Positions 10,866-40,800 of a stretch of 44,899 nt of DNA are shown here, in pieces. The notes below the pieces were generated by a model that had not been told where the DNA came from, made no database searches, and saw nothing but the letters and a program-made list of their open reading frames with translations. Source of the DNA: Rhizaria sp. SCN 62-66 (Eukaryota); the NCBI GenBank assembly GCA_001724265.1, contig MEDY01000251.1:1-44899 (forward strand), given 5' to 3'. A program made the translations under genes and the position numbers. How positions within the stretch are numbered: the stretch's first letter is position 1; every line of letters starts with the position of its first letter.

Positions 10866-13163
10866 ATGCAGCGCGCGTCCTCTCTGGCGCGGTTCGCGCG
10901 CCCCCTGCGTGTCTCCGCGCTGCTGCCGCACTCCACCGCAGCTGCGACACCCGTTGGCGCTGCCGCCGCTGCCACTACCGCCGCTGCTCGCTTCCTCGCT
11001 TCTGCGCCTGCTTGTGTTTCTCTCGGTGATTCTACCCGCGCGTTGTTTGCAACCTCCGTGCACTCCACTTCTCTCTCGCAGCGCTCCACGAGCGCCACAC
11101 ACTCCGCAACGTATCGCAACTCCAAGATTCATGATGTTGCGACTGGCCAGAGCCACGGCCACAGCATGAGTTCCATCGCTGCTGCCATCAGCCCCGCTGC
11201 TGCTGTTGCCTCTGTCTCCAGCACCACTGCGCCTCCAGAGTCCGCAACCTCTGCTACAGGCTCTGGAACTGTCTCTGCTGTCTCTTTCTCCGCAGTCTCT
11301 GGTTCGCCGCCGCAGCTGACCTGCTGTTCGATGTGGGCGAACCAAGACAAGCTGCGCATGATCTTTGCCTCCGCCTCGCACGTGGACCCGTTTGAGCTGG
11401 TGCGCGCCGACACCAACGGCATCTCCAGCTCGATCCGCGACGTCGTGGGCAGCGACCACCCTATCATGCGCACGGTCGCGGGCTACTTCTTCGAGTCAAA
11501 CACCAACCGCACGCGCCCCACGCTGCTCTTCTTGCTCGCGCGCGCCATCAGCAACACCGGCTTCACCGCCACGGCCGCGCGCGAGGCCCTGCTGGCCGCC
11601 ACTGCAAACAACAGCAGCGCTAGCAGCAGCAACAGTGTTGGCAGCAGTGCCAAGGGCATGAGCGCTGTGAGCGACCGGCAGCGCATGCTGGCCGAGATCA
11701 CCGAGCTGATTCACGTCGCCGGCGTGCTCCACAACAACGTGCCCGACACGGCCCCCGGCGACCAGTCCTGCGTCGGCATCGCGGTCCCCAAGATCCGCAC
11801 GGCCTCGGGCCCCGCGCAGTCGCTCAGCGCGCTCGCCTCCACTGCTGGTATCATCACCACCGCAAACACAAATAGTGCGAACGCTGCGACTGAGACTGTG
11901 AGCGCGAGCGCGAATGCGACTGCTGCTCCGCCTGCTGCTGCTGCTGCGCCCGCGGCCGCGACCGCTGCCACTGCGGTGACGGCGACTGCGAACAAGACGC
12001 TGCACCTGGCGCAGTCCTTCACGGGCAAGAAGCTCGTGCTGGGCGGCGACCTGCTCTTCAGCCGCGCCGTCGTAGGGTTGCACCAGCTGCACTCGCACTA
12101 CGTCACGGGGCTTGTCAGCCGCGCGATCGAGCACGCCGTCGAGGGCGAGGTGATGGCCAGCAAGGACACGGCCGCGACGGTACAGTGGTGGGAGACCAAG
12201 GCCTTCCTGTCCTCGGCGTCGCTGCTCGCGCACACCGCGCAGGCCACGGCCGTGCTGGGCAAGGGCGACGCCGCGGTCCAGCGCCTCGCCTTCGACCTGG
12301 GCAAGTACCTGGGGCTCGTCGCGCAGAGCATGGACGACGTCCGAGCCTACCGCGCCGCACTGCCCAAGCACCTCACGCCGCCCGGCGACGTCACCGAGCC
12401 GCTCTTCGAGGCCTTCGAGGCGCTCCACGCCAACAGCGGCAGCGGCGGCAGCGGCAGCGGCAGCGGCGTTAACGCGACTAGAGTCGGGTCCAGCGTGTTT
12501 GCCAGCGCCGGCAGCGGCGGCTCTAGCGCGGGTAACGCGAGCGTGAACATCGGCGTGACGCCGAGCCGCAAACGGAGCCTGATGAACTACCTCTCGTACG
12601 TACTGCCCAAGCCGCTGCGCATGCTCGTGGCCTCGCGCCTCGCGCCCAAGACCAGCATTGAGGAGATCCTCAACAACAATAGCAACAATAACAACAGCAG
12701 TAGCAAGAATACGAACTACATTGACGCCGCTGCGGCCGCTATCGGCACGTCGACCCCGCAGCAGCAGCCCGGCTGGCCGCTGTTCGCGCTGTCTCGCGTG
12801 CCCGCCTCGAGCAAGTCGATCCCGTCGCCGTCGCGCGTGGTCTCGACGGCGACGACGCTGCTGTACGCCGCCGCCCCCGCGCCGCCGCTGCCCGACACTG
12901 CCGGGTTGGTCTTTGTGCTGGCCGCTGCGCTGGATCCCGCCGTGCTGCCGCTCGCCGCCGCCGCCTAGGCCGCGCCGGGCGACGCCGCCGCCGTCCACGC
13001 GCTCTACGAGGCCATCCAGCGCTCGGGCGCCGAGGAGGCCGCGCGCCAGGCAGCTGCCGTGTACGCGGGCAACGCGACCGCGGCCGCGGCGGCGCTCGCG
13101 CCCTCGCAGTGGCGTGACGGGCTTGTGCGGCTCGTCTACTACGTGCTCACCAGGAAGCACTGA
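10866..13163 (+). CDS. Trans-prenyl (decaprenyl/solanesyl) diphosphate synthase-family protein with degenerate Asp-rich motifs (PDSS2/DLP1-like), ~765 aa, in-frame TAG at 12966-12968
   Basis: A mitochondrial-type presequence (MQRASSLARFARPLR) is followed by YFF...RTRPTL, QRMLAEITELIHVAGVLHNNVPD, KKLVLGGDLLFSRA, VEGEVM and LGKYLGLVAQSMDDV. After the TAG the frame stays GC-rich and gives AAPGD...AIQRSGAEEAARQAAAVYAGNATAAAAALAPSQWRDGLVRLVYYVLTRKH-TGA, which resembles the Coq1/PDSS C-terminal helices. Confidence 0.8.
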
Positions 13164-13465
13164 GAAATACGCATTTTCGCAATGAAAAATTAAAAGAGTC
13201 ATCACTGTTGCAGGACTTTTCTGGTGGAGCATTCGTAACTTAGACATGATGAGGTCACTTTTTTTCATCTTGATTTGGTTTTTTTGCTTCATCTTCTGTT
13301 TAGAACTTTAGGTCATTATTTATTATATGTTTTAAGTAGATATATGTAGTAGTCACGATTAGAATACACATAAACACTGCTATAAACAAAGATATCACTC
13401 ACAAACTGTGCTTTAAATATGTCACTATTAATGTCACGCTCACTTATTGTTGGTCGAAAAACGCT

Positions 13466-15741
13466 TCACATGCGTTGCTCCCGCTTGCGGCGCTCCTCAA
13501 CCTTCTCGAACTCGACGCCGCCGACAAACTTGTTCTCAATGCGCGCAATCTCCTCTGCGCCCTGGCGGTGGTGTAGCACCTTGCCGAAGTTCTCCAGCTC
13601 GAACCGCACGCCGACCTCGGCCTTGTTGCTCTCGAAGGCGTAGCGGCCGCTGAGCGCGAGCGTCGATGACGGCACGGACCAGGCCTTGAGCCCTAGCACC
13701 AGCGACACGTCGCTGTCGCGCACGCGCGCCTTGACCAGCACGTTCTTGTTCGCCTGCCACGCCAGAACTAAGGACATCGCGCTCAGCCCGGCGTTGCTGG
13801 TGCTGCTGTCGGTGAGACTCGCGGCGTTCGACGCGCTGCCGGCGCTTGCGACAGGACTGCCGCCGCGCACGCTCCGCTGCTGCTGCAGCTGCTGCTGGGT
13901 CTTGTCAAATGCGATTTGGAGCCCCACGTCTAGGTAGTTGTGGATGCCGACGACGTTGCTCTTCTCGAGCGGGTTGTACACGCTGCGCCGCATCACCAGT
14001 CGGTGTAGGAACGAGAAAACGTGTTCCGCGCCCCAGTGTCGCCACTGGTAGCCGAGCTGGAACGAGCGCCCGCCGCCCTGCCCCACCACGCCGCTGCCGC
14101 CCGCGGGGTGCCCCGCGCCGCCGTTGCCGCCGCTGCCGCCGCCATTGCTGTTGTAGTCCGGCGTAACGCCGAGGAGCGGGCCGGCCTCGTAGACGGTGCT
14201 GACGTTCAGGTCCTTCTCGCCCGTGGCCGGGACCACCCCCGCCTGTACGATAGTAGTAAAGCGGGGGCCGCGGTAGCCCAGCCAGCCCTCGACGACGCTG
14301 TCGTTCTCGACCAGCGCGGCGCCCAGCGCGCTCGACGCCTGCAGCGACTGCTGCAGCGACTGCCGCAGGGAGTTGGGCGTCAGCGGCGTCTCCGGCTGAG
14401 ACAGATCAGACTGCGACAGCGACGTAGACTGCAACGGAGATGAAGAAAAGGACGCCGGCGGCCGCGCGGTGTCCTGGCTCCAGCAGAGGCCGGCGATGAG
14501 CGTGTCGCCGTCGAGGCGCAGACCCGCGCGCGCGACGTCGTGGCGCGCGCGGCTGCCGCTGCCCGTGAAGGGCTGCGTGACCGACCGCGCGATCGCATCG
14601 CGGGAGAAGGACGACGCGGGCGAGGACAGACTGGTCGTGTTAGACACGCGCGCAAACGCGTCGCCGGGCCTCTTTGCACTGCTGCCGCTGGGACTGCTCT
14701 GGGAGGAGAGAGTGTCGGCCTCGGCGTCGGTGTTGCCTAGCACCGCGGGGACGACAAAGAACGCCGACACGGGCGTCGCGGCCGCCGCATCGGCGCCGTT
14801 GACCGCGGCGGCAACCGCGCTGGCGTTGACGACGCCGCGGAAGCACACGGAGCCGCCGCGCTGCGTGCTGAAGGACGCCTGCGCGTAGCTGCTGAGAGGC
14901 GTGCCGTCGATCGCTGTGTAGGTGCCGGGCGCGGGCTGCCCCGCCGCGGCGGCCGCGAGCGCGCTGAGCCGCTGGCGGTGGCCGATGGCGACCTCGCTGG
15001 CGGGGACCAGATACAGGTGCGCCTCGGCGCCAAGCTGGTGATAGTACGGCAGCGGGGAGCTGGAACCCAGACGCGGCTTGCTTTTCGGGGCGCCACCCTT
15101 GCTCCCAGCATCTGCGGCGTCGTTACTGGAATAATTGGGGTTGGGCACGCGCTCCGAGTACACGTGGCCCTCGACGTTGACGAACGGCCGGTGTGTGAAC
15201 TGCACGGCTGGCGCCGAGAACTGGGCGGCGGAGTCGGCCGCGTCCGTCGCGGTCGCAGTGCTGGTGAGGACGGCGTCGTCCTGCGACGACACGCTGAGCG
15301 GCGGCGCGGGCGCCAATGGGTCCAGATGGCGCGGCGGGCGGTAGCGCGGGACGGCGGCCGCGGAGGACGAGGACGCGGCCTGCTGTGAGGTGAGCGACTG
15401 AGGGCACATGAAGAAAGAGGCCGAGATGGGGTAGCGGTCGTTGATCAGGTCGTTGTGCACGACATCGTACTGCAGGCGGATCAGGTCTGACGGGGGCAAA
15501 ATCAAGCTGAGGTAGACAAAACAACGAATTAAATACAATCGTACAGCATGATAAGAATTTGTTTTATGTGTGATGCGCTAGAACGATTTACATTAGTGGA
15601 AAAGCAATGAGCGGGAGTGGTGGAGGACAGGGCGTACCTGTCTTGGTTGCGACGGCGGCGGAACTCGGGCGGGACGAGCACAATGGGGCTTTCCGTTGCG
15701 GGAAAGACCCAGTTGTAGATCCCAGTCACCGCAGATAACAT
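13466..15741 (-). CDS. OM47-like (porin/Tom40 superfamily) mitochondrial outer-membrane beta-barrel protein, ~714 aa
   Basis: Exon 1 is 15741-15638 (MLSAVTGIYNWVFPATESPIVLVPPEF...), the intron is 15637-15507 (GTACGC...CTCAG, phase 2), and exon 2 is 15506-13466 ending in TGA. The N-terminal PIVLVPP and the C-terminal RRSVYNPLEKSNVVGIHNYLDVGLQ and AWQANKNVLVKAR match my recollection of plant OM47 (At3g27930). Confidence 0.65.
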
Positions 15742-17771
15742 TTGAAAGTTAGGAACGTGACGCTAGACGAGTTGGTTCACTGACAAGATTCGATGGGAAG
15801 AAGCTCTAAAGCGCTGCATATCAGTAAGAATAACGTGGTTGTGAGTGGTGAGTATGTATATTTTTGCTTATTCCATATTATATTCGTCAGTATCAAAAGT
15901 CGTTCGATTGGTGCGATTAAGATCAGTGTAAAGCTCGATTTAAGGTTCAGGCTTGGACATCGACGTGGCGGACAGGCAAGCGATTAAGCTAAGAAGTGTG
16001 TGCAACACACAAACTTATTGGGAAAGTTTAATATCGATATAGTATATAAACTTTGCGTTTATATACTGTGGTGCAAGGCAGCGTCAGTAGACGGTCATCA
16101 GCGCTCGTATCAAGTCTTTTTATTTCGAGCCACAAGTTGACAGTGTGCATCTCTCTATTAACTTGTGGTTGTTTCATATTTTTCCTACTGAAAGTGGACT
16201 TATCCTTGTCAAAACAAGCCAATATTTCCATTACTGCTATTTTGTATATGTTTTTATTTCATACATTGTTCATAACTTGAAACACTTCTATTTCATGCCG
16301 TACTGATGGAATATCTACGCTTGCCTCACTGGTACAGTATTCAATGAAAAGTATGTTTACACAGATATAAGTGTCAAGACAAGTACCATCCTTGCCCTAA
16401 CGCAATTCAAAGCGACATCTTAACTTTTTAATTTGTTTACAATATCATTTTTGTTATTTCAGATCTATACCTCTCTTACGTCTTCAAGAAAAACAGTGGC
16501 AACAAGTAACTGGCACAATCACTTGTCACAACAGCATCTGCCTCAACATGATTCTTTTGAGTTTGCATAAAATACTGTACTTATTTGTCACAGTAGATTA
16601 AAACGCGATATATCGTTATAGATTAACGCGATTTCACGCATCTCGTACATCGATTCATCTTGAAACATCTCAGCTGCGCTGCTGCCACAGACTTAAAAAC
16701 AGTCAGAAGTGTTTGCACATGCGTCCTCTTCAGCTTTATATGTATAGTGCTGTTGTAATAATAAGCGCATCTTACTGAATATACACATTCTGCAATGCAT
16801 TTTCTTGTCTCGCATGTCTGATGCCGTGTCATTGCGCTCTAAGTGTTGCTGCAGCCCTTGATATGTTTCATGTTCAGAATTTGTTATAAAAATACACACG
16901 CAGGAAAGCACCATAAAGTTAAAATGAAGCTATACCTTAAACAAATGTACTGTTTGATGGTGCACCATATTTGTTTTTTGTCGGCACCTTTTTAATCGCT
17001 CCATTTGAGCGCGTGACAGTCTTAAGTTAGTTGCTAATGGTAATTCTGTGACGGTACAAAGAGACAACGTGGTCCTGACATATGATGATTTGCAGTGAAT
17101 CACTTTTCATGAGTATATGTTGCACTTGTTTGATAATTCCATTCTCAGTAATTTTAATATGGTTGTAAAGTTTTTTTGATCGAATACAACAAGTATTGTA
17201 CCCCGAAGTCGAACATTTGTGATTTTTTTTAAATATATTTATATATTTAAAATTTTGGGCGCGCGCACTTTTCGAACACTTTTTTTTCGCGATTTAAGCG
17301 TTTAAACAAATCAAATGGCATTTTTGTTGTATACAACAATACTTTCACTTTTGTTTAAAATGCGATGACCAGTTTTTATCAAGTTAGCTAACATTTACTC
17401 AAGTATAAATCGTAAAATGATGTTGTGCAATGATCAAGCCACAAGTTACCACTTACATTTGATACTCAATACTTTCCCTTTCTTTCAATATCCAGCAAAA
17501 CTTTAAATTTAAGCCATATTTACTTGTGTCAAACTGCTGCGCATATTAAATCCGTATATCGTGGCATGTTTCTTCAAGTTCATGACGCAACAACTTGAAC
17601 TTAGTCACGTCATGGTCACTCGTACTTACAATAACACACACATCTGTGTAATTAGCTTAATTGACTATTGAAAGTATATTTTCTATTATTTCGAATCAAT
17701 AAAACAATAAAAACGCGACATCATACATAAATTACACACATCTGTCTTTTTCTAATCGAGTTTGAAAAAAA

Positions 17772-20700
17772 TTACTCCTGATCTTCCTCGTCCTCCTCGC
17801 CCTCGCCATCCTCGCCAGCGTCTTCGTCCTCGTCGTAGTCCTCCTCCTCGTCGTCCTCATCGTCCCACGGCGCGCATCTCACCTCGCTCTCGAGACACCA
17901 CTTGGAGCCCGGCGCCATGTTGTTGACGTAGCGTGTGAACTGCAGCACGTTGGGCTGTTTGCGCACGATGCACAGCGTGTTGGCCTCGGCGCTGATCGAC
18001 ACCAGCGCAGCCTTCTTCGCCTTGGTCTTGGCCTTGCTCGCAGCGACCTTAGCCGCCTTGGCCGCACCCCGGGCCGCCTTGGCGCTCTCAGCCCTGGCTT
18101 TCGTGTCATCGCCGCCGTCGTCATCGTCTTCGTCATTATCGGAGTCGGAGGTGTTGTACTCCTCGGCGTTGTCGCCCTCGGTCGTCCGGTCCACGGGCAC
18201 GTGTGCGGAGAAGCCGCCGCAGTCGTCGCTGTCCCACAGCGCGCGCTTTGACTCACGGTCGCCGTGGGAACGCATGGCGCGCGCGTTCAGCGCGAACTCA
18301 CTCGCGTAGCCATTGTCGCTCGCGCTTGCAGTCGTCTCAGCGGCGCCGCCAGTCTCGGCCGCCGCGGTTTCGGCGTCTTCGCCATCACCGTCGTCGTCGT
18401 TATCATTGTTCTCATCATCAGCAGCAGCGGCAGTGGAGGCAGCAGCAGCAGCGCCAGTCTTGGTCTTAGCGCCCTTGCCCTTGCCCTTGGCCTTGACAGC
18501 CTTCCCCTTGGCCTTGCCCTTGCCGGCAGCAGCCTTCTTGCCTTTGCCCGCTGCGCCGGTCGCGCCCGCGCCCGCGGCGGCCTTGGCCTTGTCGGCCTTG
18601 GCCTTGGCCTTCTCTGCCCGGGTCTTGGCCTCGACCGCGCTGACCAGCGCCTCGCCGTCGAGCTCCCACGAGTCGTACGGAAGCACCAGAGCAGCAGCGT
18701 CGGCGTCCGCGCTCGCCACGGCCACAGCGCCAGCGGCCTCGACGTCATCCGTCTCGACCACAGCGATCCCCGTGGCATTGCCGGCGCTGTCGCACGAGCG
18801 GCCGTGGGTCAGCCAGATCTGCTCACAGTCGTCGGCCTGGCCCTGGTCCACGAGCGTGTAGCTGACCGTGAGCACGACGTCCTCCGCCGACTGCAGCAGC
18901 GCGTCGTAGGTGCCCACGGTGTAGTCGAGCCCGGACCGGTAGCGCCGCACGCGCGTGCGGTGGGTCCGCGGCCGCGCGCCCGTCAGCCAGTGCAGCAGGC
19001 GCGCGAAGGCGGCCGACGCGAAGAGGCTCTGCGCCAGCGCCGACAGCAGCAGCCCGGCGCGCGCACTCGCGGGCACGGTGCGCAGCGCCGCAGTCACCAG
19101 CGGCAGCACCGACACGGACTTGGGCAGCGCGCAGCTCGCGGCGGCGCCAAGGGCGAGGCGTTGCCGGAGCTGCGGCGCGAGCGAGAGGGGCGCGGGCTCG
19201 TGCTCGCAGGCGCGGATGCGGTACGCGGGGCCGCGCAGCCGCCACGCGCCGCACAGCGACACGATGCGCGCAGTCTCCCTCACCGCGTCGCTGCCGCTGT
19301 CGCCGTTGCCGTCGCCGTTGCCGTTGGACGCGGACGCAGTGCTGAGCTGCAGGTACAGAGGCGTGACACCGGTGGCGTAGGGCGGCGGACTGGGCTTCTC
19401 GGCGAAGTCGGTGCACACGGCGGCGCTCACGGCACGGCCGGCGCTCGCATTCGCACGGGCCTTCGCTGACGCAGGCGCGGTCTTTTTGCCAGACTTGGCG
19501 CCGACCTTCTTCTTCGTAGCACTCGCAGTCTCAGCGTCAGCAGCAGGAGCAGCGGCGGCAGTCTCGGCGTTCGCGCAGTCAGTGGCGGCCGTCTTGGCGG
19601 GGCCCCTGACCGGCACGAGCGCAAGCCCATCCTCGACGTCCGCGCGGATAACCGCGGCCGTGAGCACGCGCTCCACGTCCGGGCGCAGGAAGCCGCCCAG
19701 CATGACCACGCCGCTGGCGCGCGCGCTCGCGCGGGCCGCCTGCAGCGTCGGCACGTGCGTGTACATGGGGTGAACCCACGAGCGCAGAAACGCCAGGTCG
19801 CACCCCAGCGGTGCGTCCTCGGGGGCCTCGACGAGGCGCGCCGCATCATCAGTGCTCACGCTCTCAGTGGAGGTGTTGTTGTTGGAGCCAGAGCTATTGG
19901 CGCAGAGGCGGCGCGTAATGGAGCTCGCGGTGGCGGCATGCAGCAGGCGCGCGCCCGCCTCGGCGTCCTGCCACTGGCTCAGCCGCGTGAGAGCCTTGTC
20001 AGCCTCATCAGCACTCTCCGTCTTGTCAGTCTTGTCAGTCTCCAGGCAGGAGTAGGCCTCCGTGGCGAGCGCGCGCGTGTCGCGATACTGCGCGGGCACG
20101 TCCTCAACGCACATGTCGCGCAAAACCAGCGCCGCCGCCTCGGCCGACAGCGGCACGCGGCCCTGCGCCAGCGCATCGTAAACGCTCACCACGCCAGAGT
20201 TGGCCTCGGACCCAGCGTCCACAGTCTTGTTCGCGTCCTCAGCGTTGGCCTCTGCGTCGGCGCCGGCCCTGGAGGCCTTTGAGGGCGCGGGCATGAGCGC
20301 GGTGCTGTAGCGCGCGGCGGCGGCGGGGACAGTGAGCGCGCGCGGCAGCGGCACCGTAGCGGGGACCTGCAGCAGGCGCACGGTGGCGCCCCAGTCGTAG
20401 CCCTCGGGACGCTCGCCCGCGAAGTGGAACCAGCCCTGGATGCTGACGCGCTTGGCCGAGTGCGTGTACACCTCCTGCACAGCGTGAAAGCTCTGCCCCG
20501 GCTTGACTTCGAACACGACCATTGAATTGAGCACGGGCGGGTGCACGACTGAGGGCACCGACAGCGGCACCGGCACCCACTGGCCCGTCGCGTCCACGAG
20601 CAGATGCTTGTGCTGCCCCACGTCATCCTTATCCTTGTCCTTGTCTGTGTCATGGTCTTGGTCGTGATCGTGGTCGACGTGGTAGCCCTGCGACAAGTTA

Positions 20701-21449
20701 AGCCGCGCGGTGGGGCGCGCGTCCCGGGGCAGCAGCGGCGCGGCGACAGCGGAGAAGAGCTCCAGCCCGCCGCCGTGGGCGGGGTACCACGACGCCAGCG
20801 ACGCCGGCAGCGGGGGGAGGTCACGGGGCTGAGACTGCGACTGTGACTCCTGAGATTGCTCAGCGGCAGTGGCGGCGTTGTGTGCGGCAAGGATGGCGTC
20901 CTCGTCGGCGAACTTAGAGAGGTAGATGATGTACGAGAGCTTGCGCGTGGTGATGACGTCGTCATGGCACAGCAGGTGCGAGCCGTTGGAGTAGATGTTC
21001 GCGGCGCAGTCGACGCGCGAGGACAGCTTGCCGCAACCCGTCACGCGCTCCAAAAACCCGCGGAAGGCGTCCGAGTACATATGGGTGCGCAGCGCCATGA
21101 GGTGCGGGACCTTTGCGGCCTCGGGCGAGCTCAGCGGCAGGTTGTTGAGGTCCATGGTCTGCGAGACCTTGAAGAGGTCCGTCTCGCGGTCCACCGTCGC
21201 CAGGTGCGAGAGGATTTCCGTGCGCACAGCGAGCATGGAGCGCAGGTCGCCAAGGTTGTCGATGCGAACGTGGCGGTAGGGCACGCTGTGCGCGTACTAG
21301 TCGCTCAGCGCCGCCACCGAGGCCGGCTCGAAGAGCGCCGGCGTGAAGGGCGACGCGGGCAGCCAGGAGGGGAAGGACGCCTCGGCGCCCGGGGAGGAGC
21401 CGGGAGGGCGCGGGGTAAACTGGCTGGCAAGCATTGGGGCGCGAGACAT
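17772..21449 (-). CDS. OGFOD1: Tpa1/Ofd1/OGFOD1 2-oxoglutarate-Fe(II) prolyl hydroxylase of uS12/Rps23, ~1225 aa, in-frame TAG at 21297-21299
   Basis: Start is ATG 21449 (or 21434). Translation reads ...LFEPASVAALSD*YAHSVPYRHVRIDNL...ETDLFKVSQTMDLNNL, then HLLCHDDVITTRKLSYIIYL (HxD), GGGLELF, FEVKPGQSFHAVQEV (distal His) and RVSIQGWFH. A second domain (RRYRSGLDYT, WDSDDCGGF, LQFTRYV) follows, and the gene ends in TAA. Confidence 0.88.
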
Positions 21450-21815: not shown

Positions 21816-24800
21816 ATGAGCGTGAGTGACCAAATGCAGCAGATGTGGAAATTCCTCGACCAGCTTCATTCGAAGGATCCCGAAGGTACGTTACTTCCCT
21901 AATCACTCACGCCGTACTCATCTCCTGCTCTTGATACACCCCTGCTCACTCTCTGCTATATTATTATTCCCCTTTGTCCACATAGCCTATGCCGAGTTCT
22001 TGAAGCAACAGCAAGCTGAGGCTGAGAAAGAACGTATTGAACAAGAGAAGGTCCGTTTCTTAAACCGTTCTTCCCTTTTCCCGCACTCGCTGCGACCGCC
22101 CTAACTTCATTAGGCTCGCACTACGCCTTATCTCACGTTCTAGCTGCTCGCGTCCCACTATGTTCCTCGCCCCACAGAACTCTTTTACTCCGAAGCCCGT
22201 GTTCTCGTTTGCCGTCCGCCTCACGCGGCCCCCGCCCTCCAAGTCCGCCCCGGGCCCCAGCTCCTCCAGCGCCAACAGCGCTAGCGCCGGCGGTAGCGGT
22301 GCTGCGTCCTTGTCCCACGGGACGCCCGTGGCGTCAGGCGTTACCCGCGCGGGGACGGACACGACGAGCCGACTGGACGTGCTGGTCGTGCACGTCTGCG
22401 CGCACCCCGAGGTTGGGCCCGCGCAGCTCAAGCTCGCGGCGCCTGGCACCGTTGCGCCGCCGCGGACGCCTGTCTCGTCGCTGCTCATCCCGCTCAGCGT
22501 GGGCGCGCTGCTGCCCGTGCCCGACTGGGCGCAGCGCCGCCGCGAGCGTGACCACGAGCGGCGCCGCCTCGCCGAGGTCGAGAAGATGAGGCAGAAGGTC
22601 AAGCAGGCCCGCGAGAGCGCGGCCAAAGGGCCCACCATCTCCGCGAACGGCACCAAAGACAGCAACAACAACAGCAGCAGCAGCGATAGGCCTGGCAAGA
22701 GCAGCACTGCTCGCGGCCGTCTCGGTCTCGGCCTCGGTCTTGACGACGACGAGGACGGGGACGCAGACGGTGCCAACGCCAGTGCGAGCGCGGCGACTGA
22801 CGTTGCGGGGCTGGTTGCCGAGCTGCCCGCGTCGGCGCTGCACTGGTACGACAGCCCCGGCTGCGGCGGCGACATGTTCACGGACCACTTAGACTGCCCC
22901 TCGCTGGCCAAGTTCGTCCGCGGCAAGGTCGAGGCCGCTCGCCGCGCGCTGGGCCAGAAGAAGGCCGACGGACCCACAGTCATCGTCATCCCCTCGCCCT
23001 CGGCCGGTGTAAGTGCCGCCGGTGTAAGTACCTCCGCTGGTGTAAGTGCCTCCGCGGGTGCAAGTGCGCCTGCGCCGGCGGCTGCGAAGGAGATCCGGCT
23101 CGTCAGTGGCCTGCGCTGCGACCGCGAGCGCGTGGTCGCGATGGTGCGCGCAGCCACAAGCGCGGGCAAAGACGGTAAAGACGGTAAGAGTGGCGAGAGC
23201 GAGGTCGACATCAAGGCGGCGCTGGGCCTCGGCAAGGCGGCGGGCAGCGCCGCCGTGGGCGCCAGCAGCGCCAAGAGCAGCGGCATCGTCGTGCTCGACG
23301 ACGGCGACGACGGCAGCAACAGCGGCGCGTCTAGCGCGGCTGCGACGACGACGGCTGCGGCGACGACGAACACGGTGTACGTGACGGTGAGCAAGCACGT
23401 CGTCGACGTCGTCTTCGACCCGACGCTGCTGCGCCGCGCGCTCGGGCCCTCGGTCTACGACCGGCTGCACCCGCCCGACTCGGGCGACCCCGCCGCGTTT
23501 AACTCGGCCAATAAAGCCAGCAAGGCGGGGAGGCCGAGTTCGAGCTCGACCAACAGCAGCAACAGCAGCAGCAATAGTAGCAGCAGCGGCAGCAGCTTTG
23601 TCGCGCCGGCCCCGGGCACCGCGCCGGACGCCGACCCCGAGCTGGTTGCCGCGCTGGCCGCGCTGGCCCTACAACACGTGCAGGAGGACGAGGACGTGCG
23701 CGCCGAGCACCCCTACGCGCTGCTCGACTCGGTGCCCGACACGGGCCGCCGGCGCGCGCAGTTCACCCGCGCTGCGGCCGAAGACGTGCGCGCCGGGCTC
23801 GAGGCGGGCGCGGCCGCGCTCGCGGGGGATAACAAGGGCGTCAAGAGCAACGCCAGCAACAGTAAGACAAGTAAGGCGGGTTCCGATGCCGCTGCAAGTG
23901 CGAGTGCCGCCGCGCGGGCGCGCGCGCACGCGGACGCGATCATCGAGTCGCTGACGCAGACGGCCACCAGCGCGGGGCAAGGCGTCAAGCTGCCCTCGGC
24001 GGCCGGGGCCGCGGGCAGGGCCGCAGCGGGCGGCGCCAGGAGCAGTGCGGCCAGCAAGAGCCTCTTCGGTGGGCTCGGCCTCGGTGGCGGCGAGGACGAC
24101 GACGAGAACGACGGGTTCGTGATCAAGGAGGCCGTGAAGGATAAGAACGCTTCAGACAAGAGCGCAAGCACTGGTAAGAGTGCAAGTGATCATGCTGCAT
24201 TCAGTGGTATCACCGAGGTCAGGACAGCTGACAACGACGACGGCAGCGGGATCATCGACCTCTCGTCGCTGAAGCTGACTGGGAGCGCGAGCGCCAGTAC
24301 CAGCAGCAGCGCGTCTGGCAGCAAGAGTAGCGGCGACGCCAATGGCAAGACGTCTTCGAGTGCGAGTGGGATTAAGCTCATCGAGGAGGTGAGTGATGAT
24401 GTTGGTGGCGGCTTAACTTTGGTTCGCGAGGTGAAGGAGACGCCTCAGTACAGGTACGTGTGACTATTCCACTTTTCAGATATCAGAATATGGGTCGTAT
24501 CTTCTTAATGCGAAAGTAAGAACAGATAAATGGAGCGATAATGTTAACTACATATTATTAATGAACGTGTATTGCACTCACTTCCCGATCTGTTTTGCGC
24601 ACGTGCTTCTTGCTATACTTAGCATCAAGAAGAGCTCCACCGACGGCGGCCAGGTGCTCACGGTCACTTTCACACTGCCGCGGCACACCGGCGGCGGCGG
24701 CGACGTCGACCTCGAGATTAACCCCCAGTCGCTCGCGCTCACGTCGCTGCACTACCACGTCAAGGTACGTTCATGCGTTTATTCAAGCCTACGACTGCCA

Positions 24801-25084
24801 GGCTACTAAAAACGTCTTCATTGACTGTCGAGTCTTCAGTATCACTATTTGTTGATTATACATATGAAATACTGTGATTGCGATTCAATGAACAATGAAT
24901 TATCTCGAGGATATTAACTTATTACGTCGATTTTCCGACTAAATTTATATATTCGTGTTTGTTTGTGTCCTTTTTGTTCGTGTAGCTGTCACTTCCCGTC
25001 ACAATCGATGACGCTGCTGCTGGTGCTAAGTACAGCAGTAAAAAGCGCACACTGACATTCAGCGCTCCTGTCGCCAACAATTAA
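21816..25084 (+). CDS. PIH1D2: PIH1-domain/CS-domain co-chaperone (PIH1D2-like), ~883 aa, 5 exons
   Basis: Exons are 21816-21885, 21986-22050, 22178-24453, 24623-24764 and 24986-25084 (TAA), and all phases join. The N-terminus QMWKFLDQLHSKDPEAYAEFLKQQ is PIH1D2-like, followed by FTPKPVF and VVDVVFDP. The C-terminal CS domain reads LTVTFTLP...DVDLEI...LSLPVTIDDAAAGAKYSSKKRTLTFSAPV. Confidence 0.75.
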
Positions 25085-25443: not shown

Positions 25444-25886
25444 TTAGTTGTCCTGGTCTGACTCGGGGAGCGGGCGGAGGAACTCCTCGGGCGTCTGCGA
25501 CGAGGCCCTCTGGAGGAGCGCAGTGATCTTGTCGTTGAGCTCGGGCAGCGTGCACGGCTCGACGTCTGCACCGAGTAGTGGTCCGTGTGCTCGTGCACCA
25601 GCACCAGCCCCTCGGGCATGGGGAAGCCCTCGTAGAGAAAGTACACGCGCGCTTTGTCGCCCTACCACGTGCTCACGGTGTGGCGCATCTTCTCGCTTTT
25701 GGGCGGCCGCATCGACATTCCGTTGGGCTCGACGTACTTGTCGGCCTTCATCGGAAGCACCTTGCCGTCGTGCAGCTTCAGGTCCCAGGACCGCTTTACC
25801 GGGTTGAACACGCGCAGAGGGACCGGAAGCCGGAAGATGTGCACGAGGTGGGTCGGGAGCTGCGTGTAGCGCTTTAGAACAGACAT
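25444..25886 (-). CDS. Tse2-like ADP-ribosyltransferase-fold protein (~147 aa) with an in-frame TAG (25662-25664) and an apparent 1-nt frameshift near 25560; possible pseudogene or assembly error
   Basis: Translation reads MSVLKRYTQLP...WDLKLHDGKVLP...PNGMSMRP...TW*GDKARVYFLYEGFPMPEGLVLVHEHTDHYSVQT, then in the shifted frame EPCTLPELNDKITALL...QTPEEF...DQDN-TAA. PNGMSxRP, LVLxHEHxDHYSxQ and ELNxKIT are motifs I recall from eukaryotic Tse2-family proteins. Confidence 0.7.
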
Positions 25887-26363
25887 CCAAGCAGAAGCGG
25901 GTCTGAGATGTGGGTGCGAAGGAAGGAACACGTGATGGCGTATGAGAGATTATGAAGAGTTCTCGTTGTGATAAATGATAATATAACGTTTTATCTCTAT
26001 TAGTCTCATGGCATATACAAATAATGAACTCTGGACAATCCCAAGCGTCCGTATTCAGTTGCAAAGCTAGCCCACTTCTATCTCCCCTTCTCCTAATACA
26101 CATGCAGTTTCTGCGAACCCTTCGAAGCAGCGCAACTTCGATTTTGATGAAAAGAACAAAATTCCCCGCATCATTCGATGCAGAACTTTGAAATGACATA
26201 TCGGCACAATTACTATCATTTTTTTTATTTTGCAATTCCTTGCAACGGATGTCTTACTGCTTCTGGGCCTTCCGCAGCGTCTGCATCGCCCTTTCTCATC
26301 GCCTTCGTTTGCTGCTTTGTCCCTGCTCTTGCCGCCTGTACTGCTTTTCGTCAGCGCCGTTCT

Positions 26364-31835: not shown

Positions 31836-34139
31836 TCAGCAGGGCGTAAAGTCCTTGAACAGCACAATGAGCTGCGCAAGCCCCCTGGAGACGACCTCGC
31901 ACTTGGCGAACTTGTAGGCCCACACATTGACCTTGTTGTGCTCGGTGTCGCTGTAGGGGATCTGCGCGATGCCCTTGTCGAGCAGCGTCTGCACCGGCAC
32001 CGTCTCGTGCAGCATGCGCGTCTGCATGTTTACCCACGCTTGCAATACCACGCGCAGCATCGTGCTGGGCAGCGTCGTGTACGGCAGCGACCACACGAAG
32101 AAGGCCTTCGACGGCTGCCGCTCCGTCGTGCGCGGCACCTCCTGCAGCTCCACGAACTGCGCCTGCAGCATCGAGTACAGCACCTCCTTGGCCTCCTTCT
32201 TGGGCAGCAGCGCCAGGTCCGAGACCTGCTTGTCCTCGAGGCGCGCGCGGTCCGAGAGCAGGTGGAAGACCTTGGCCGCGTTGCCGCCACATCGCTCGCG
32301 CACGAGCGACTTGGCTGCGTCGAAACGCATGCCCTGCAGCAGGCGCTCCGTGAGCAGGTAGTACTCGTTGGGCGAGTTGCGCGAAGGTCCCATGAGGTCG
32401 AGGCTGATGTGTGACAGCCGCTGGATCGCGGCGTCGAGCTCGACGGCCGAGATGAGGTCGAACTCGGCCGCGTCGTCGGGCAGCTCGCTCCGCTTCAACT
32501 CGCTGACGAGAGTGTAGAGCTGGTCGCGAACGAAAAAGAGCCGACCGCCGGTGTTGGGGGCGAGCGTGGCCTGGTGGCGCAGCAGCGCGACAACGATGCG
32601 GCCCGCCATGTGGCCCGCGCGCGTGGTGGCGTAGGCGTAGGCCATGTCCGACAGGATGTGCATCACGAACCTGTCGTGGTTGATGATGAGCGGGATCTCG
32701 CTGCTCGAGCTGCTGGAGCCCGCGCTGACGCTGCTGCCGCCGCTGGCGGCCGGGGAGGACGCGCCCGCAAAGCCGGCCATGATGTCGTCGTTGAGCGAGC
32801 TCTTGGCGCTGAGGCCCTGCTGCTCGAGCTTGAGCTCGGAGCTGGAGCTGGGGCCGGGGTTGTCCAGCTTGCGCTTGCGCGACTTGCGCGCCTGCACCTG
32901 CATCGAGGCCTCATCGAAGAAGCCGTTAGACTGGACGATGTAGCCCTGGTTCAGCATGATGTCGAAGGTCTTGAACACGCGCTTCGCAAGCGACGCCGCC
33001 TGGGTGTCCTCAGCCTACAGAGAGACGAACAAATATGCAAAGACAAAGGTGCGAGGATTCGATGAATGATTTAAAGGTATAGGTGCAAATGGGGGACTAG
33101 ATAACAAAAAGAGAGTCAAATAGAGAGTCTTGCGTACCTGCGCAATGCGCGTCATGGTGTCGCTGTCGACGGGCGTGCCCTCGAGGTACAGCGTGAGCAG
33201 CCCACTGGGCAGCGCGGCGAGCTCCTCCAGAGACATCTTGGACAGATCGGGCATCTTGGGCCCCTCTGCCGCGGTGGCGCTTCTCTCGGACTTGACCGCG
33301 ACCACGTCGTCGTCGTCACCGGCGCTGGCACTGCTGCTGCTGCTGCTGCCATCGCCGCCGTTGGCCTCTGCGGCGGCGGCCTCGCGCTCCTCGCGCTCAG
33401 CGGCCTCGTCTTCAAGCTTGCGGCGCTCCTGCTCAACGTGCTTCTTCTCCAGCTTCTCGATCACCACGGGGAGGATCTGCGCCACAGTGCGCTTGCCCGA
33501 GACGCAAAACTCCTCGGTGATGGCCAGCCCTTCCTCGCCCCACAGCCGCGAGGCCGTGGCCATGTACTCGGAGAAGCGCGACATGCCGCGGATCATGTTG
33601 ACGTCGATGTAGTAGACGAACTTCTTGACGTTGGCGGCCTTGGAGCCGGCGTTTGCTAGCGGCACGCCCGCGTCGTCGCGCGGGAACACGATGCACGGGT
33701 TGCTCAGGTGCGCGCGGCGCGGCTTGTAGGCCGCGGCGAGCGGGCCGCCCGAGCCGCGGTCACCAAAGAAGGCGGCGTCGTTGTAGTCGCCGAAGCCGGG
33801 CGCGTCGGCGCTATACTCGTCCTCGTCCTCGTCCAGGTCATCGTCGTCGCTGTCATGGGCGCGGCGGCGCGGCTTGCGGCGCGCGCGGGACTTGCGCTCC
33901 TTCGCCAGCGCCGACTTGTCGGGCTTGAGCAGCGGGACGGGGGCCGAGACGCGGACGACGTCGTGCTGGAGCATGGCGGCGATGACCTGGGCCACGGCCT
34001 CGATGTCGAGACCGGTGCGCTTGGCCAGGTCGGGCACAGTCTGGCCGTTGCGCTGGGTCAGGGCGCGCGCGATCTCGAGGCCGAGCGGGCCGAAGCGCTG
34101 GCGGACGACGACCAAACAAAAGTCGATGTAGTCCTTCAT
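31836..34139 (-). CDS. POLR3C: RNA polymerase III subunit C82/RPC62, ~726 aa
   Basis: Exon 1 is 34139-33138, the intron is 33137-33015 (GTACGC...TGTAG), and exon 2 is 33014-31836 ending in TGA. An N-terminal winged helix (VRQRFGPLGLEIARAL...AAMLQHDVV) is present, and the C-terminal SLVRERCGGNAAKVFHLL...LEDKQVSDLALLPKKEAKEVLYSMLQAQFVELQEVPRT...FFVW is typical of RPC82. Confidence 0.88.
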
Positions 34140-37100
34140 GGCTGGCGGAGAGTCAACAAGCAGTGAAAGTAAGGGCGCAGCGAGCACGAGCGAGTCTGAT
34201 GAAGTAGAAGCGAGCGGTGGGTTTGCTCGGCGTTGTTGTTTGAGCAACAACAGGTGTGGAGTGTTGTGCTTCGCGGGGACTGCTGCTCTTACGAGGAAGA
34301 GTAGAGACCAGTAGCTAGCGGGCGGGCGCAAAAACAGACGCCGGGAAAGAGAGCGGAGCTCTGTACAGAGAGAAGGGGGGACAGCAAAGAAAGATGTGGT
34401 GAGCTTAGGCGGGACAGACTTTCGCGGCTTTCGGGTTGAGGTGTAACAACATTAAATCAGAGTCTGAATAAAATGCGTAAATGAAAATAAACTTTCAAAG
34501 ACTTGGAGATACGTTGCAAAGTCTACAACGGACTTATTCCCAGACAAAAGCGTTTTCCGCGCGCCGCGCACATCAGCTAACCGAGCTCCAGTCCCGCCGA
34601 TCCCGCCAGCTGCTGCGACAAGACCTCCAACCAAGCAACGCAGCCCTGATCGCAAAGAGCCAAATCAACACTAAAAGCGAGTAGAATTATCATAATGAAG
34701 TTCAATATGTTAGCATAGTGGATGAGGGATGAAATTTAATGGTTTTCGATTTCTAAGACATTGGAGAGGCAATATGATGCAATGTATTTTATACCGTCAC
34801 AACGTGAGACGAACGTTAAAGTGGAGACAGGGGCTGCTCCACGTTCAGATTATTTTGATTTTGGTTCTGATTTGTCATAGTAAGATGATTATGAGCTTGT
34901 TGAAAGACTAGATACCAATAACAAGAGCGACGGCAATAGCAGCAGACGAAATGTAAGGTCAAGAAGTTAACATCAAGCAAACACAAAAAACAACGAACAA
35001 CAAACGAAGCCATCACACACAGAGATTTTGAGAGGACATGAATATATGAACGACAAAAAAAAGTCACAATATTATGCATCAACCCCGAGTACATCTACTT
35101 CTAGATTTTCGTAGAGTCACGGCTTGATACATATGTCTACTCTCAGTTTCCTCCACACACGAACACTCACGCTGACACGAACACAAAAACGTGAAAAAAC
35201 TACACAGCAGCGCTCCGTAGCGGTGCTTAAATGCATTGTTGTTACTTTACAAGCACTTGGTGTAGGTGTACGTGTGTTAGTGCACGCGCGAGCGAAAGTG
35301 ATCTGAGTGCGAAGTTAAAACAGGCAGACAATTCTTGACAGATCACGGGAGTTGTTATCACGATCATAACCGCGAGTTTTGTAGTTGTGTTACGATTAAT
35401 AGCAATCGCGACTTACCACATCACGAGCTCAGCAACACCAACTAGACTGAGCTAGCGCGAGCATGCGAGCAAGAGAAAGGGCAGACCAGCGGCCACGACA
35501 ACACAAGTCAACTCAAGCGACAATGAAGGCAACAACGACAAACAACAACATAAGACGACATTCACATCAACAGCAGCAGTAGTCTGACATCAACGAGTAG
35601 GACGTGTCAAAAAGAGCAGCACAGTGAATATTGTTCCATGTTACGAGAGAAAAATGAGTTGAACTGACAAGAGGCTCACATGATAATGTTTTCACAAAGG
35701 TTACGATAAAATCTCACAAAAAAACAAGGACAGGACAAAAGAGAAATTATTACCAATCGTTTTAATGATTGGTATCATACGTAAGCTGAGCGCGTAAAAT
35801 GCAAAAAACATACACGCATACACACATAGAAGAAAGGATAGCAAAGCAATCCCAAATAACAGTAATATTACCAACCTGAATCGTGGCCAGCCACACCAAC
35901 AACGCTAACTAACTCGCTACATCGCGTCACATTCGATAGATTGCAGTGTAAAGTTCACTTAAACAGTCATTTGATTAATTAGCAGTAATCTTGTCTTCAT
36001 TCATTTAATTTCATCAAAAACAAAACGACGTAAACAATGATATCGCAAGCAACATCATACTCCACTGAAGATAACTCACACTCACATTTAGTACACGTGC
36101 TCAGACACTGACACAAAACCACACTGAAGTAAAGGCAGTGTGTGAGTGCGAACAAGTCTTGAGTGCGTGTGCGTGTACGTTATCGAGTGCAGCGGAGATG
36201 TTTTGCGATAAGTGATCATTTGCCTGTCTGAAGAACTGAGTTAGGACTGAGTGACTGAGTAATTGTGGACATGATAAAATTTCAGGCTAAGGGTAAACAG
36301 TAACAATGGGGTGACTTGAGGGGGAGAAATATGTGTTGCAAAGTTGCTATACATAAAACAACACTGCTCATAGAAGTAACAGCAAACAAAAAGAAAGAAA
36401 GGGGAACAAATACCGCGTAGGGGAGAAGAAGAGGCAGCTCGACCATAGAGCAACAAAAATAACAACAAACAATGTCTCAACACAAATCACAACGAGAGTA
36501 TATAACACGCGCATGGAAAAGACTCCACCGTGCGAGTGTCTGTGACCAAGTTGGGTTTGTTGCTGTGTTAGGGCGTTGCTGTTGAAGGGGTGTTGCTGCT
36601 TGTTGAGTGCCGGCGGGGGGCGGGGCGGGGTGGGAAGTGCTGTCTATGTTGCAATCACGAGTAATACAGCTGTACTTAGAAATAAAGTACTTGCGGTTCG
36701 AACTGCACACTTAGAGACACACACTCAGGCACACAGGCGCCACCGCTGCAGAAGGGGAGCCAGGCTCAGCGTTATCATAGAGCAATCTCACTAACTCGTT
36801 CTCGCGCTATATCGATCTTTGTCTCTATTCAAATCCACTAGAGAACAAGAGTGTCTCGGACGAAAGAAAAGAGAGTTGGAAAGCAAGGAAGCGCAAGTGC
36901 ACAGCAAGACTGGGACAACAAAGAGCATGGTTGCAAAGCCTTCGCATCACATCACAGATAAAAGCCCACTGATAAGTGAAGCTGAGATCACACAAAACAA
37001 AAGAGAAACAAAATAAAGAAAACCATACAGAGGACAAAATACAACGCGTTAAAAAGAAGAGCAAATAAATGACAGGACAAAAAAAAGCAAGAAGCAAAAT

Positions 37101-37879
37101 AAGACACTGGTTTGTCACGACTATAGTAAGACTAGAGTATGCTTAACGACACCGACGAACAGCGTGGACGAACACGCTGAGACGCAGAGCAGTTGCAGCA
37201 ACGACAGTAACAACAGGCAGTGACAATACCGAGTTACATCTGGGCCAAAAGTAATAGCATCTGAGATTAACGAGATCAAAACAAAGATTGGCATAGAAAA
37301 CGCAAACAAGTAAAACAATGAAGACTACATCAATGACAACAACATCAATAAGGCGACTGTCAGAAAAGACCGCTGCGTCAGTGTCACAGTGCTTATAGCA
37401 AGTACTAGAGCATGACGAGGAACACTAACGGAGCGATCGACTTGAGGTAGCGCGTTGGTGGCTCAACACAGTGCAGAGAACAGACTGCACTGGAGTAGTG
37501 TAACGATTACACGACTCGCGAGGTGCAGCTGTTCGTCGACTGAGCCCATCCAAGCACTTCTAACCTTAAGACCAACTGATCGACTTATCATTGCGCAAAC
37601 GCTATTCTAAGAGTGTTAGCGCCCGCTTTCAATCAACAAAAGACTTCGACTAATCCAGTACATCTCGCGCTTACATAGATCTCGCGGTGGAGAACCTCTG
37701 CAACTAACAGTGTAACCACCGCCTGCGACCATGGAAGCGCAAGCTCTCTAGCCAGTCCAAGTCCCACGCCATTTGGAATATTTTTGATCACCTCAACCTT
37801 CACTCATTATTTACGCCGACTTGAGCCTCCCTTTACCACGCAGATGGCTTGACCTCGTCTTCGTAGTTGGCTCCGTTGC

Positions 37880-40800
37880 TCACTGCGCGTTCTCGGTGAT
37901 GAACTTCTGCACCGAGGCGAGCCCCTTGACGACGTCGGGCGGCAGCACGAGCATCAGCGCGCGCGTCTGTCGCGCCGACACGTTGAGTCTCTGGATGATG
38001 GGGTGGTAGATAACGATGTAAAAGAGCAGGATAAGCACAATAAAGCACACCAGGAAGGCGATGCGGAACGTATCGAAGTCCTTGATGTAGTTCTCGACGC
38101 TCTGCGAGTAGAGGTAGCCCGAGTACCCCATCGCGGGGCCCACCAAGTCGATGACGAGCCCCGAAAGCTCGGTGAAGGACGCCATCAGCGCGTCGTAGGC
38201 CGCGGACCCGGGCAGGTAGTTGGGGTTTGTGGGGCCGCCGATCAGGTGCGCGAACACGGCGCCGACTTGCGCCTCGGCCAGCCCGCGAATGCTGTTTTCC
38301 ACGGTGATGAGCGTCGCCGTGAGGCCGCGCGTCATGAGCCCGTCGGCGAAGGTGGGGCAGAACGTGGCGTACTTGTGGGGGATCATCGCGCCTGGGTAGT
38401 CCTCAGTGACGCAGGCATTATCGTACAGCAGCGTGTTTTGCAGCGCACTGTAGGGCGGCGCGCGAAGGCCGAGGGACTTGTCGCCGAAGACGATGCCGTG
38501 CTGGTACAGCGTGAAGTAGTCCATGCCCCAGATCACTTCCTGGCTAAAGGGCTACTCAGTCAGCAGTGGCGACAGCGGATAGTCGGCCTTGACTGTGGCG
38601 TAGTCGCTGAACAAGTGCTCGCGGAGGTAAAAGTAGGACCGCTGCATCATGGTCATGCGGCGCGACGCCAGCTCGACCGTGGCCGACATGGCGTAAGCGT
38701 TGTCGATGCGCTGCGTCGTCATGACGCTCATCACGATCATGTACACGGTGACGAAGATGATGAGAAAGGCGTACTTGAAGTAGAGGATGCGCATGTTGCG
38801 CTCCGACTCGGTGGTGGCGTCATCCTGCTGGCTCGTCTGATCATTGTCGTCCGACGACCCGCCGGCTGCAGAGCCGGTCTTTTTGGAGTCGTTGAGGTTC
38901 ACACCCGCGGCGGCCGCGGTGCCACCGTCGTTGAGCACCAGATTGTCGGCGCGCTCAGCCTCCTGCGACTTGTTCTTGATGTTAGCGTTGATGCGCGAGA
39001 GGTTGACGCCGCCGCTGTTGCTGTTATTGGCGTTGTTGACGGTGGGACCGAACATGTCTGCGGTCGCCGCGTAGAACGATTCGTGCGGGGGGTTGTTACC
39101 GCTGCTGGCACGACTGCCGGCGCCCCGCACGCGGCGGTAGCGCTGTAGGGCCGAGGACGAGTGGCCCGAGCCCAGCGCCGAGGCGACGCCGGAGGCCGCG
39201 GTGCGCTCCTCGAGGGCCGAGTCGTCGCCGTTCTCCCCGGGCCGGCGCTGGTTTTCGTGGAAGTCGATGGCCTCCTCGCCCTCCTCCTTCATGAGCGCGT
39301 AGACGCGGCGGCGTAGCGTGCGGCGCGTCTGGCGCGGGATGTCGAGGAACATCTCCAGTACCTGTCTCTTGCCCTGCTCGATGTGGCGGATGACAGGGAA
39401 GACGATGAAGATGAGCACGATTACGATGAAAACGACGGCGATGACGCCGATGAAGATGAGGATCATCATGAGTGCGAACCGCTGGTCGTCGACCACGCTG
39501 CGCGCGTACTGGGTCATCGTCGCGTACGTCTGCGGCAGCCGGTTGATGCCGTTGGAGAAGATGTAGTGCAGGTTGGCGTTGGCGTTGACGTCGAGGTCCT
39601 GTTGCGCGGAGGCCGAGAGCTTGACTGTGAGCACGAGCACGAAGATGAGGGACGCGTATATCTGCGTGGCCTCAAGCAGCCCCATGAGTTGCGTCGTCAC
39701 CGCGGCGCCCAGGCGTATCGACATGGCCAGGATGGGCGTGTCGTCAATGTAACTCATGGCGCGCGTGCGGACGTACGTGGAGGCTGCTACCCCGACCTGC
39801 AGCTCCCGTGCGGGGGCCGAGATGGACTCTGCGAAGTCGAGGAACACGCTCTGCACCGTTGTGGGCACCGTCATCGACGGCACGAAAAGCACGTCCAGCG
39901 TGGCCGTTTCGACCAGCGACGCCGTGCGCGCGTTTATCATGCTCGACTGCACCAACGCCATGCGCTGCCCAGAGTGGCGCACGTAATCGATCTGGTTGCG
40001 GATCCGCGTGAAGTAGAGCGACGTCACCAGGAAGCCCGCGATGGCGGAGACCCACAGCAGCACCACGAGCACGATGAAGAAGCGTGACATGCGCGCAAGG
40101 CCGGCAGAGGTCTTGACGTTTTCCTGCTCGATCACGCGCATGAGCCGCTTGTGGCCCTTGCGCTTGGTGCCGCCGTTACTGGCGAGCGACGAGTCGTCCG
40201 TGATGCGCGACTCCGTCTCGGTGCCCGAGAAGCCCGACATGCCGCTGCCGCCCATGAGCTCGCGCGCGCGCGCACGCTTGTGCCGGCGCACGAGCTTGCG
40301 CTTGCGGATCGCCATGTCAGACTCGGCCGTGGGCTTGGCCTCCGCTTCGGCGGGCACCAGCATCGTCACCGTGTTGGCCTTGCCGCCGGCGGCGGGCGTG
40401 TCGGGGTCGCTCATCGTGCCACCAGCCTTGCCGGCAGCCGTGCGGCCGCCGCGGTGGCCCGCCGAACCGCGCGCGAAGGCGCCGTTGGCCGAGAGCATGG
40501 CGTTGAGCGGGTGCGGCTTGGGACCGGCGGCGATGACGCTGCTGCCGTGGGACGAGCTGTTCTCGTCGTCGTCCATCGTCATGCGCGCCAGACTCACCTT
40601 GGCGCCAGCGCCGTTCTTGTTGTTGACCGCCGCGCCATCCGACACGTGGCCGCTGGCGCCCTTGGTCTTGGTGCTGAGGCGGGCCGCGCCGGCGCCGGGG
40701 GAGATGAGCCCGTCATCATCGCCCGAGGAGGTGCTGAGGCGGCGGCGCGACTGTGAGGCGGTCTGCGCGACGCCGTCAGAGAGGTCGTCGCCCTCGCCGA

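Follow-up and report, generated by a model that had tools for sequence, protein, structure and literature searches.

In-frame TAG codons in otherwise intact genes of an uncultured wastewater protist suggest an early change in the meaning of UAG

The codons UAG and UAA nearly always change meaning together in nuclear genetic codes. Contig MEDY01000251.1, analysed over its full length of 44,899 nucleotides (nt) and referred to here as the window, raises the question of whether the two have come apart, since it contains conserved genes in which a single TAG interrupts a long open reading frame (ORF). An original prediction, made from the letters of the sequence, had named four such genes: a polyprenyl diphosphate synthase-like gene (PDSS-like), an OGFOD1/Tpa1-like prolyl hydroxylase gene, a Tse2-like ADP-ribosyltransferase-domain gene and a TmcB-like membrane protein gene; and had proposed that UAG is a sense codon while UAA and UGA remain stops. 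The analysis described here indicates that the organism probably translates UAG and terminates at UAA and UGA, with the change at an early, low-frequency stage.

The window is a eukaryotic nuclear contig, with GC-rich exons interleaved with AT-rich intergenic DNA. Contigs with near-identical sequence occur in runs of several studies, sampled from bioreactors, wastewater and activated sludge, and the organism is therefore an uncultured protist that is known from metagenomes alone. The window is best explained as a nuclear contig from an intron-poor protist of this kind, out of wastewater and bioreactor metagenomes. Gene models were built from ORFs, Pfam matches and homologues, giving 12 genes plus one broken gene (Tse2-like). 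Codons were tallied over the 12 models, with the Tse2-like gene counted apart; these comprised 9,827 sense codons with a G-C content at third positions (GC3) of 0.878. Within them TAG occurred in frame three times and TAA and TGA not at all, so that neither was as frequent in frame as TAG. Seven of the 12 genes ended with TGA and five with TAA, exactly as had been listed in the original prediction, and none ended with TAG. The third position of CAR, GAR and AAR codons was G in 1,242 cases and A in 94, yet the TAR stops comprised five TAA and no TAG. No TAG was found in the window near the 3' end of ORFs bounded by TAA or TGA.

The coordinates and frame of all four in-frame TAGs were confirmed, each within a long, GC3-rich ORF (sites 1 to 4; Table 1), and Pfam matches and orthologue alignments bore out the claim that family-conserved sequence lies on both sides of each. 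At site 1, the polyprenyl_synt match of the PDSS-like gene was located upstream of the TAG, and the protein matched solanesyl and geranyl diphosphate synthase structures. A PDSS-like orthologue from another metagenome (P0153, 59% identical) could be aligned without gaps from a point 30 residues ahead of the TAG as far as the C-terminus, and the two proteins shared the ending ...SQWRDGL[V/I]RLVYYVLTRKH. The residue opposite the TAG was Glu in P0153, the closest orthologue, and Phe in a plant solanesyl diphosphate synthase structure, which was a weak match.

At site 2, the catalytic 2OG/Ofd1 domains of the OGFOD1-like protein are encoded downstream of the TAG. The 50 codons ahead of it aligned, without gaps at the TAG, with P0009, P0010 and P0011 at their N-termini (e.g., WLP.SPF...LFEP..VAAL). 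Of the orthologues P0008-P0011, P0008 begins downstream of site 2 and is therefore uninformative for this TAG. Residues opposite the TAG in homologues were R, R, T, S, Q, S, E, S, A, V, E and Q; the best named match was from the rhizarian Bigelowiella (38% identity). At site 4, two homologues of the TmcB-like protein were available (P0004 and P0005), of which P0004 (48% identity over 1,235 columns) aligned without gaps through the TAG and the last 223 residues to the same C-terminus. Residues opposite this TAG were M, R and S, the Met being that of P0004. Judging from these alignments, the TAG has to be translated in all three genes to give the conserved downstream sequence. Public gene calls of the organism (P0152, P0007, P0003 and P0025) were cut off or split where the TAGs occur. 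Among these, the table-11 call for the PDSS-like gene (P0152, 545 aa) stopped at the TAG, while P0003, sourced from ENA, ended at residue 1632 of P0002, just upstream of site 4.

Assembly error is excluded as the source of the TAGs, because the contigs of runs X1/X2 and X4, contig L001 and gene call P0003 agree on them. The comparison of runs covered a 20-kb stretch of the window with sites 1 to 3. DNA contigs of X1 and X2 spanned all three sites without a difference at the TAGs, X1 record 3 doing so at site 1 with 0 differences; the figures for X1 and X2 were identical and these may therefore be a single data set. X4 belongs to a separate study, of 2025. The site-2 TAG was unchanged in X1 record 7 and X4 record 22, and L001, a Joint Genome Institute contig, shared 3,230 nt with the window at 100% identity, site 2 included. 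The TAG alleles were fixed, with no alternative allele, among runs of separate studies dating from 2015 to 2025, while allelic variants were visible elsewhere in the window. Thus, when checked in DNA as the original prediction had proposed, TAG was retained by contigs of separate studies.

The corresponding check in RNA succeeded for site 1, which was its scope. A poly(A) metatranscriptome contig (X5 record 27, 12754-13042) retained the TAG with 0 differences and 0 gaps; since it bridges the codon unchanged and ungapped, site 1 is neither edited nor spliced. In two intergenic bins rich in AT the depth of X5 was zero, a pattern more consistent with RNA than with carried-over DNA. Two minor features of X5 were noted within the same gene. 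The RNA contig carried a C>T difference at 12017 that was absent from the DNA runs (depth 2.7, one contig), and which probably reflects a strain difference or an error. One further X5 contig departed from the window at 12971; the partial matches across this GC-rich stretch belong mostly to other organisms (share running on unlike, 0.64).

Of the four genes originally offered as evidence, the PDSS-like, OGFOD1-like and TmcB-like genes stood as intact, but the Tse2-like gene did not. When genes with several lesions were classed as pseudogenes, only this one qualified; in addition to its TAG, the frame shifts by 1 nt at approximately 25561-25562, between ...HYSVQT and EPCTLPELNDK..., and no indel variant was seen there in any run compared. 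The Pfam ADPRTs_Tse2 match spanned the TAG, and among 35 homologues the corresponding column held R (13), K (12), Q (2), G (2) and A (2), with N, S, E and D once each. The TAG was present in X1 and also in a diverged X4 variant (5 differences, 25625-25719). Judged on its lesions, the Tse2-like gene is probably a pseudogene, and its TAG is most simply a plain nonsense mutation in a gene that is frameshifted as well. Around this gene (25444-25949), X1, X2 and X4 showed half-depth variants at 25798-25854, and one contig each of X4 and X5 diverged from the window sequence at 25495; a second copy or a structural variant may exist here.

If UAG is translated as proposed, it would no longer be an efficient terminator; ribosomes would insert an amino acid and go on, and UAA or UGA would end translation. 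Decoding would require a tRNA that reads UAG, either with a dedicated CUA anticodon or as a very efficient near-cognate, and recognition of UAG by the release factor would presumably be weakened. No tRNA was found in the window by ARAGORN, and a search of the whole window against Rfam returned no match at all. The inserted residue would probably be polar, with Glu, Gln and Lys as candidates, each of which is one base from TAG. A crude average of BLOSUM62 scores over the TAG columns (three to four variable columns) ranked Glu above Gln above Lys, and placed Leu, Tyr and Trp near the bottom. That a polar residue fits better than Leu, Tyr or Trp is only a lead from these columns.

A comparison was possible with a relative, represented by L002 (21.4 kb, positions 1-21395, of a 110.7-kb contig), the OGFOD1 protein of which is 53% identical. 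Among nine long ORFs in L002, three ended at TAG, with TAA or TGA following 4-9 codons further on, and no TAG was found inside the coding parts of the nine. The ORF at 18508-21393 has a TAG at codon 79, upstream of a plausible start, that was unclassifiable. The contrast in TAG ends between the window (0/12) and L002 (3/9) is suggestive, not decisive (one-sided Fisher p = 0.063). The scarcity of TAG in the window, combined with a relative that has ordinary TAG stops, points to a recent change that looks lineage-specific. L002 was otherwise compact and intron-poor, with a much weaker GC3 bias (about 0.5-0.6), and around OGFOD1 its gene order was not obviously syntenic with that of the window. 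Further contigs of the organism or its relatives were found neither in genome-contig scans (OGFOD1 and TmcB alignments) nor in a viral-contig scan; a metagenome scan gave L001 and L002 alone.

The proposal that UAG is sense and UAA and UGA are stops was therefore upheld in part. In its favour are the three intact genes, the lack of TAG ends and of in-frame TAA or TGA, and a relative that stops at TAG; several observations weigh against it. The sample is small, being three good sites and 12 gene ends on one 45-kb contig, and TAG makes up 0.03% of codons. That the in-frame stops are all TAG is weak evidence by itself, because the codons that are common in GC3-rich sequence and adjacent to a stop (CAG, GAG, AAG, TCG, TGG and TAC) mutate mostly to TAG; moreover, the TAG in the frameshifted Tse2-like gene means that nonsense TAGs do arise through decay in this genome. 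The residues opposite the TAGs differ among sites, in columns that are variable and mostly polar. The RNA evidence concerns site 1 and derives from assembled contigs, in a library where some DNA carry-over is possible, and the p-value of the contrast with L002 counts on this side also. Finally, the rhizarian exLh, considered below, has approximately five UAG in frame per gene, at positions of conserved Leu, compared with 0.25 per gene (three in 12) here.

One alternative retains the standard code, with UAG as a normal terminator elsewhere, and supposes that readthrough of UAG, whether programmed or leaky, is specific to the three genes. Programmed readthrough, for example of the UAG-CARYYA type, also produces same-frame translation past UAG, and UAG can be decoded by near-cognate Gln, Lys or Tyr tRNAs, which the mixed residues in the alignments would fit; the rarity of in-frame TAG is likewise as expected of readthrough. 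However, the four contexts (GCC-TAG-GCC, GAC-TAG-TAC, TGG-TAG-GGC and GAG-TAG-CCC) differ and share no motif such as CARYYA, as originally predicted, nor did the 100 nt downstream share a stable fold (z-scores of +1.23, -1.85, +1.81 and -0.58). Readthrough products are usually minor, whereas here a conserved protein core lies beyond or around the TAG. TAG is also no ordinary terminator in the window, and readthrough leaves its absence from all 12 gene ends unexplained. For these reasons readthrough was considered an unlikely explanation.

A second alternative, also under the standard code, is that the TAGs are true premature stops. The genes would then be pseudogenes of recent origin, truncations that are tolerated, or redundant copies within a segment undergoing decay. 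The neighbouring Tse2-like gene, with its TAG and frameshift, provides a precedent, and TAG is the nonsense codon to be expected in GC3-rich coding sequence. Many long off-frame ORFs are present in the window, and a frame that stays open past a TAG in GC-rich DNA is a weak sign of selection. Against this, decay would have struck three of 11 otherwise intact genes exactly once each, with a single TAG and no frameshift, TAA or TGA over 765, 1,225 and 1,816 codons; the same TAGs are fixed in runs of separate studies from 2015 to 2025; and the PDSS-like transcript, at least, is present in poly(A) RNA. Decay would also leave the missing TAG terminators unexplained, and it was judged improbable as an account of the three genes.

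Introns might also bring TAG into frame. Five were identified in the window (Table 1), all of which began with GTACG, measured 123-221 nt, had a GC content of 0.32-0.40 and were pyrimidine-rich near the 3' end; three of the five ended with TAG. The PIH1-like gene reached its TAA once two introns were removed. The POLR3C intron has a length divisible by three and contains no in-frame TAA or TGA, and so mimics an in-frame TAG; the TAG at 33015-33017 was accordingly rejected as a sense codon, being the 3' splice site of this intron. Sites 1 to 4 were rejected as intron ends. The 120 nt ahead of them had a GC content of 0.61-0.78, compared with the low values of real introns, and orthologue alignments were gap-free across sites 1, 2 and 4, which agrees with the original claim that none of the four lies in an AT-rich intron. 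A GTACG motif 103 nt upstream of site 1 was rejected as an intron start; the resulting intron of 106 nt would break the frame, not being a multiple of three, its GC content is 0.78, and the TAG-keeping RNA contig spans it without a gap. An artefact, whether assembly or sequencing error, GC-rich introns ending with TAG, or RNA editing, is in consequence largely refuted and very improbable, despite the real introns that end with TAG and the one in POLR3C that places it in frame, given the agreement of independent assemblies and the gap-free orthologues.

Table 1. Positions in the window of the in-frame TAG codons, the genes containing them and the introns identified.
Feature	Position	Strand	Description
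PDSS-like (polyprenyl diphosphate synthase) gene	10866..13163	+	Single exon, 765 codons, stop TGA; Pfam PF00348 polyprenyl_synt, E 1.2e-10
In-frame TAG, site 1	12966..12968	+	Codon 701 of PDSS-like gene, 65 codons upstream of TGA stop
OGFOD1/Tpa1-like prolyl hydroxylase gene	17772..21449	-	Single exon, 1,225 codons, stop TAA; Pfam PF13661, PF13640, PF10637
In-frame TAG, site 2	21297..21299	-	Codon 51 of OGFOD1/Tpa1-like gene
Tse2-like ADP-ribosyltransferase-domain gene	25444..25886	-	Probable pseudogene; TAG and 1-nt frameshift, end TAA
In-frame TAG, site 3	25662..25664	-	Tse2-like gene; family column mostly Arg/Lys
TmcB-like membrane protein gene	37880..43330	-	Single exon, 1,816 codons, stop TGA; Pfam PF25474 TPR_TmcB, E 1.5e-21
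In-frame TAG, site 4	38552..38554	-	Codon 1593 of TmcB-like gene, 223 codons upstream of TGA stop
AADAT intron	7150..7351	-	202 nt, GTACGA...CCAG, GC 0.32; contains TAG at 7319
WDR74 intron	9237..9394	+	158 nt, GTACGT...ACAG, GC 0.35
PIH1-like intron 1	24454..24622	+	169 nt, GTACGT...TTAG, GC 0.37
PIH1-like intron 2	24765..24985	+	221 nt, GTACGT...GTAG, GC 0.35; last exon 24986-25084, TAA end
POLR3C intron	33015..33137	-	123 nt, GTACGC...TGTAG, GC 0.40; Pfam domains on both flanking exons

Few lineages in which UAG is uncoupled from UAA are described in the sources used here (PMC5304391, PMC11687900). The nearest parallel to translation of UAG in the window is Rhizaria sp. exLh, a sainouroid obtained from an insect, in which UAG encodes Leu and UAA and UGA are stops; 384 in-frame UAG were counted there in 71 genes or transcripts, with 56 UAA and 15 UGA stops (PMC5304391). 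It resembles the present organism in that UAG alone has changed, UAA and UGA are the sole terminators and close relatives apparently still stop at UAG, and in not being a ciliate. The Bigelowiella match to OGFOD1 (38%) is a weak hint of the same rhizarian affinity, too weak for placement. Searches of a protein atlas were no more specific, yielding an aminotransferase found mostly in bacteria and, in the other case, Eukaryota. Unlike exLh, there was no Leu among the residues of the alignments at the three good sites, and the polar-residue ranking, with Leu near the bottom, argues weakly against a Leu assignment of that kind.

In Iotanema spirale (Fornicata), UAG encodes Gln and UAA stays a stop, according to the same source (PMC5304391). 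It too has a UAG-only change, and Gln was second in the residue ranking here. Iotanema, a fornicate, is anaerobic, whereas the present organism apparently has aerobic mitochondria; we take this to follow from its PDSS-like gene, a ubiquinone-pathway synthase, or from the gene labelled mitochondrial-porin-like in the original prediction.

Among phyllopharyngean ciliates, UAG encodes Leu in one TARA lineage, and both Hartmannula and Trochilia read it as Gln (PMC11687900). These were repeated, independent, UAG-only changes with UAA kept as a stop, which came to light, like the present case, in metagenome-derived eukaryote genomes. Reassigned UAG is there reported to be widely used, whereas TAG is rare in the window, GC3 is 0.88 and the spliceosomal introns begin with GTACG. 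Ciliate genomes, by contrast, are AT-rich. In the oligohymenophorean ciliate PL0344, UAA and UAG reportedly encode different amino acids (PMC10553269). Both codons are sense in PL0344, whereas UAA terminates in the present organism. The likeness lies in the different meanings of UAG and UAA; in PL0344 these are reportedly Glu and Lys respectively, so that its UAG would agree with the residue that fits best here, Glu.

Full-text searches of the literature, supplementary files aside, turned up no wastewater or activated-sludge protist for which a UAG-only code has been reported. Membership of the class of UAG-only codes is supported by in-frame UAG, the absence of UAG ends and of in-frame UAA or UGA, and UAG in mRNA at one site. 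The present case differs from those known in being a GC-rich, non-ciliate wastewater protist with GTACG introns, a very low frequency of TAG and a relative, also sampled, that uses TAG as a stop. A more specific version, that a non-ciliate protist is at an early stage of reassigning UAG alone to a polar residue, Glu or Lys in place of the Leu or Gln already known, while keeping UAA and UGA as stops, would amount to a new nuclear code table; this is offered as a tentative and rather doubtful possibility. Were it true, a sister lineage would still stop at UAG and an intermediate stage of reassignment could be compared between near relatives. Confirmed genome-wide, translation of UAG would add the organism to the small set of UAG-only nuclear codes and, with Glu or Lys as the residue, might make its code a new variant. 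Another independent example would help to show how UAG can be told apart from UAA by eRF1 and tRNAs, and the pair of organisms could show the first steps of stop-codon capture.

Two other features of the window were observed. The conserved enzymes encoded by the PDSS-like and OGFOD1-like genes contain very large low-complexity inserts (Ala, Ser, Asn, Asp and Lys); the solved synthases have 321-348 aa, while the named Bigelowiella and Volvox homologues of OGFOD1 have 680-685 aa (compare Table 1). In addition, the 3.3 kb at 34500-37800 had a GC content of 0.42-0.50, and A was in marked excess over T on its + strand (AT skew 0.20-0.26); it lacked any GC3-rich ORF and any match to Rfam or a tRNA, and was the largest apparently gene-free stretch of an otherwise compact contig.

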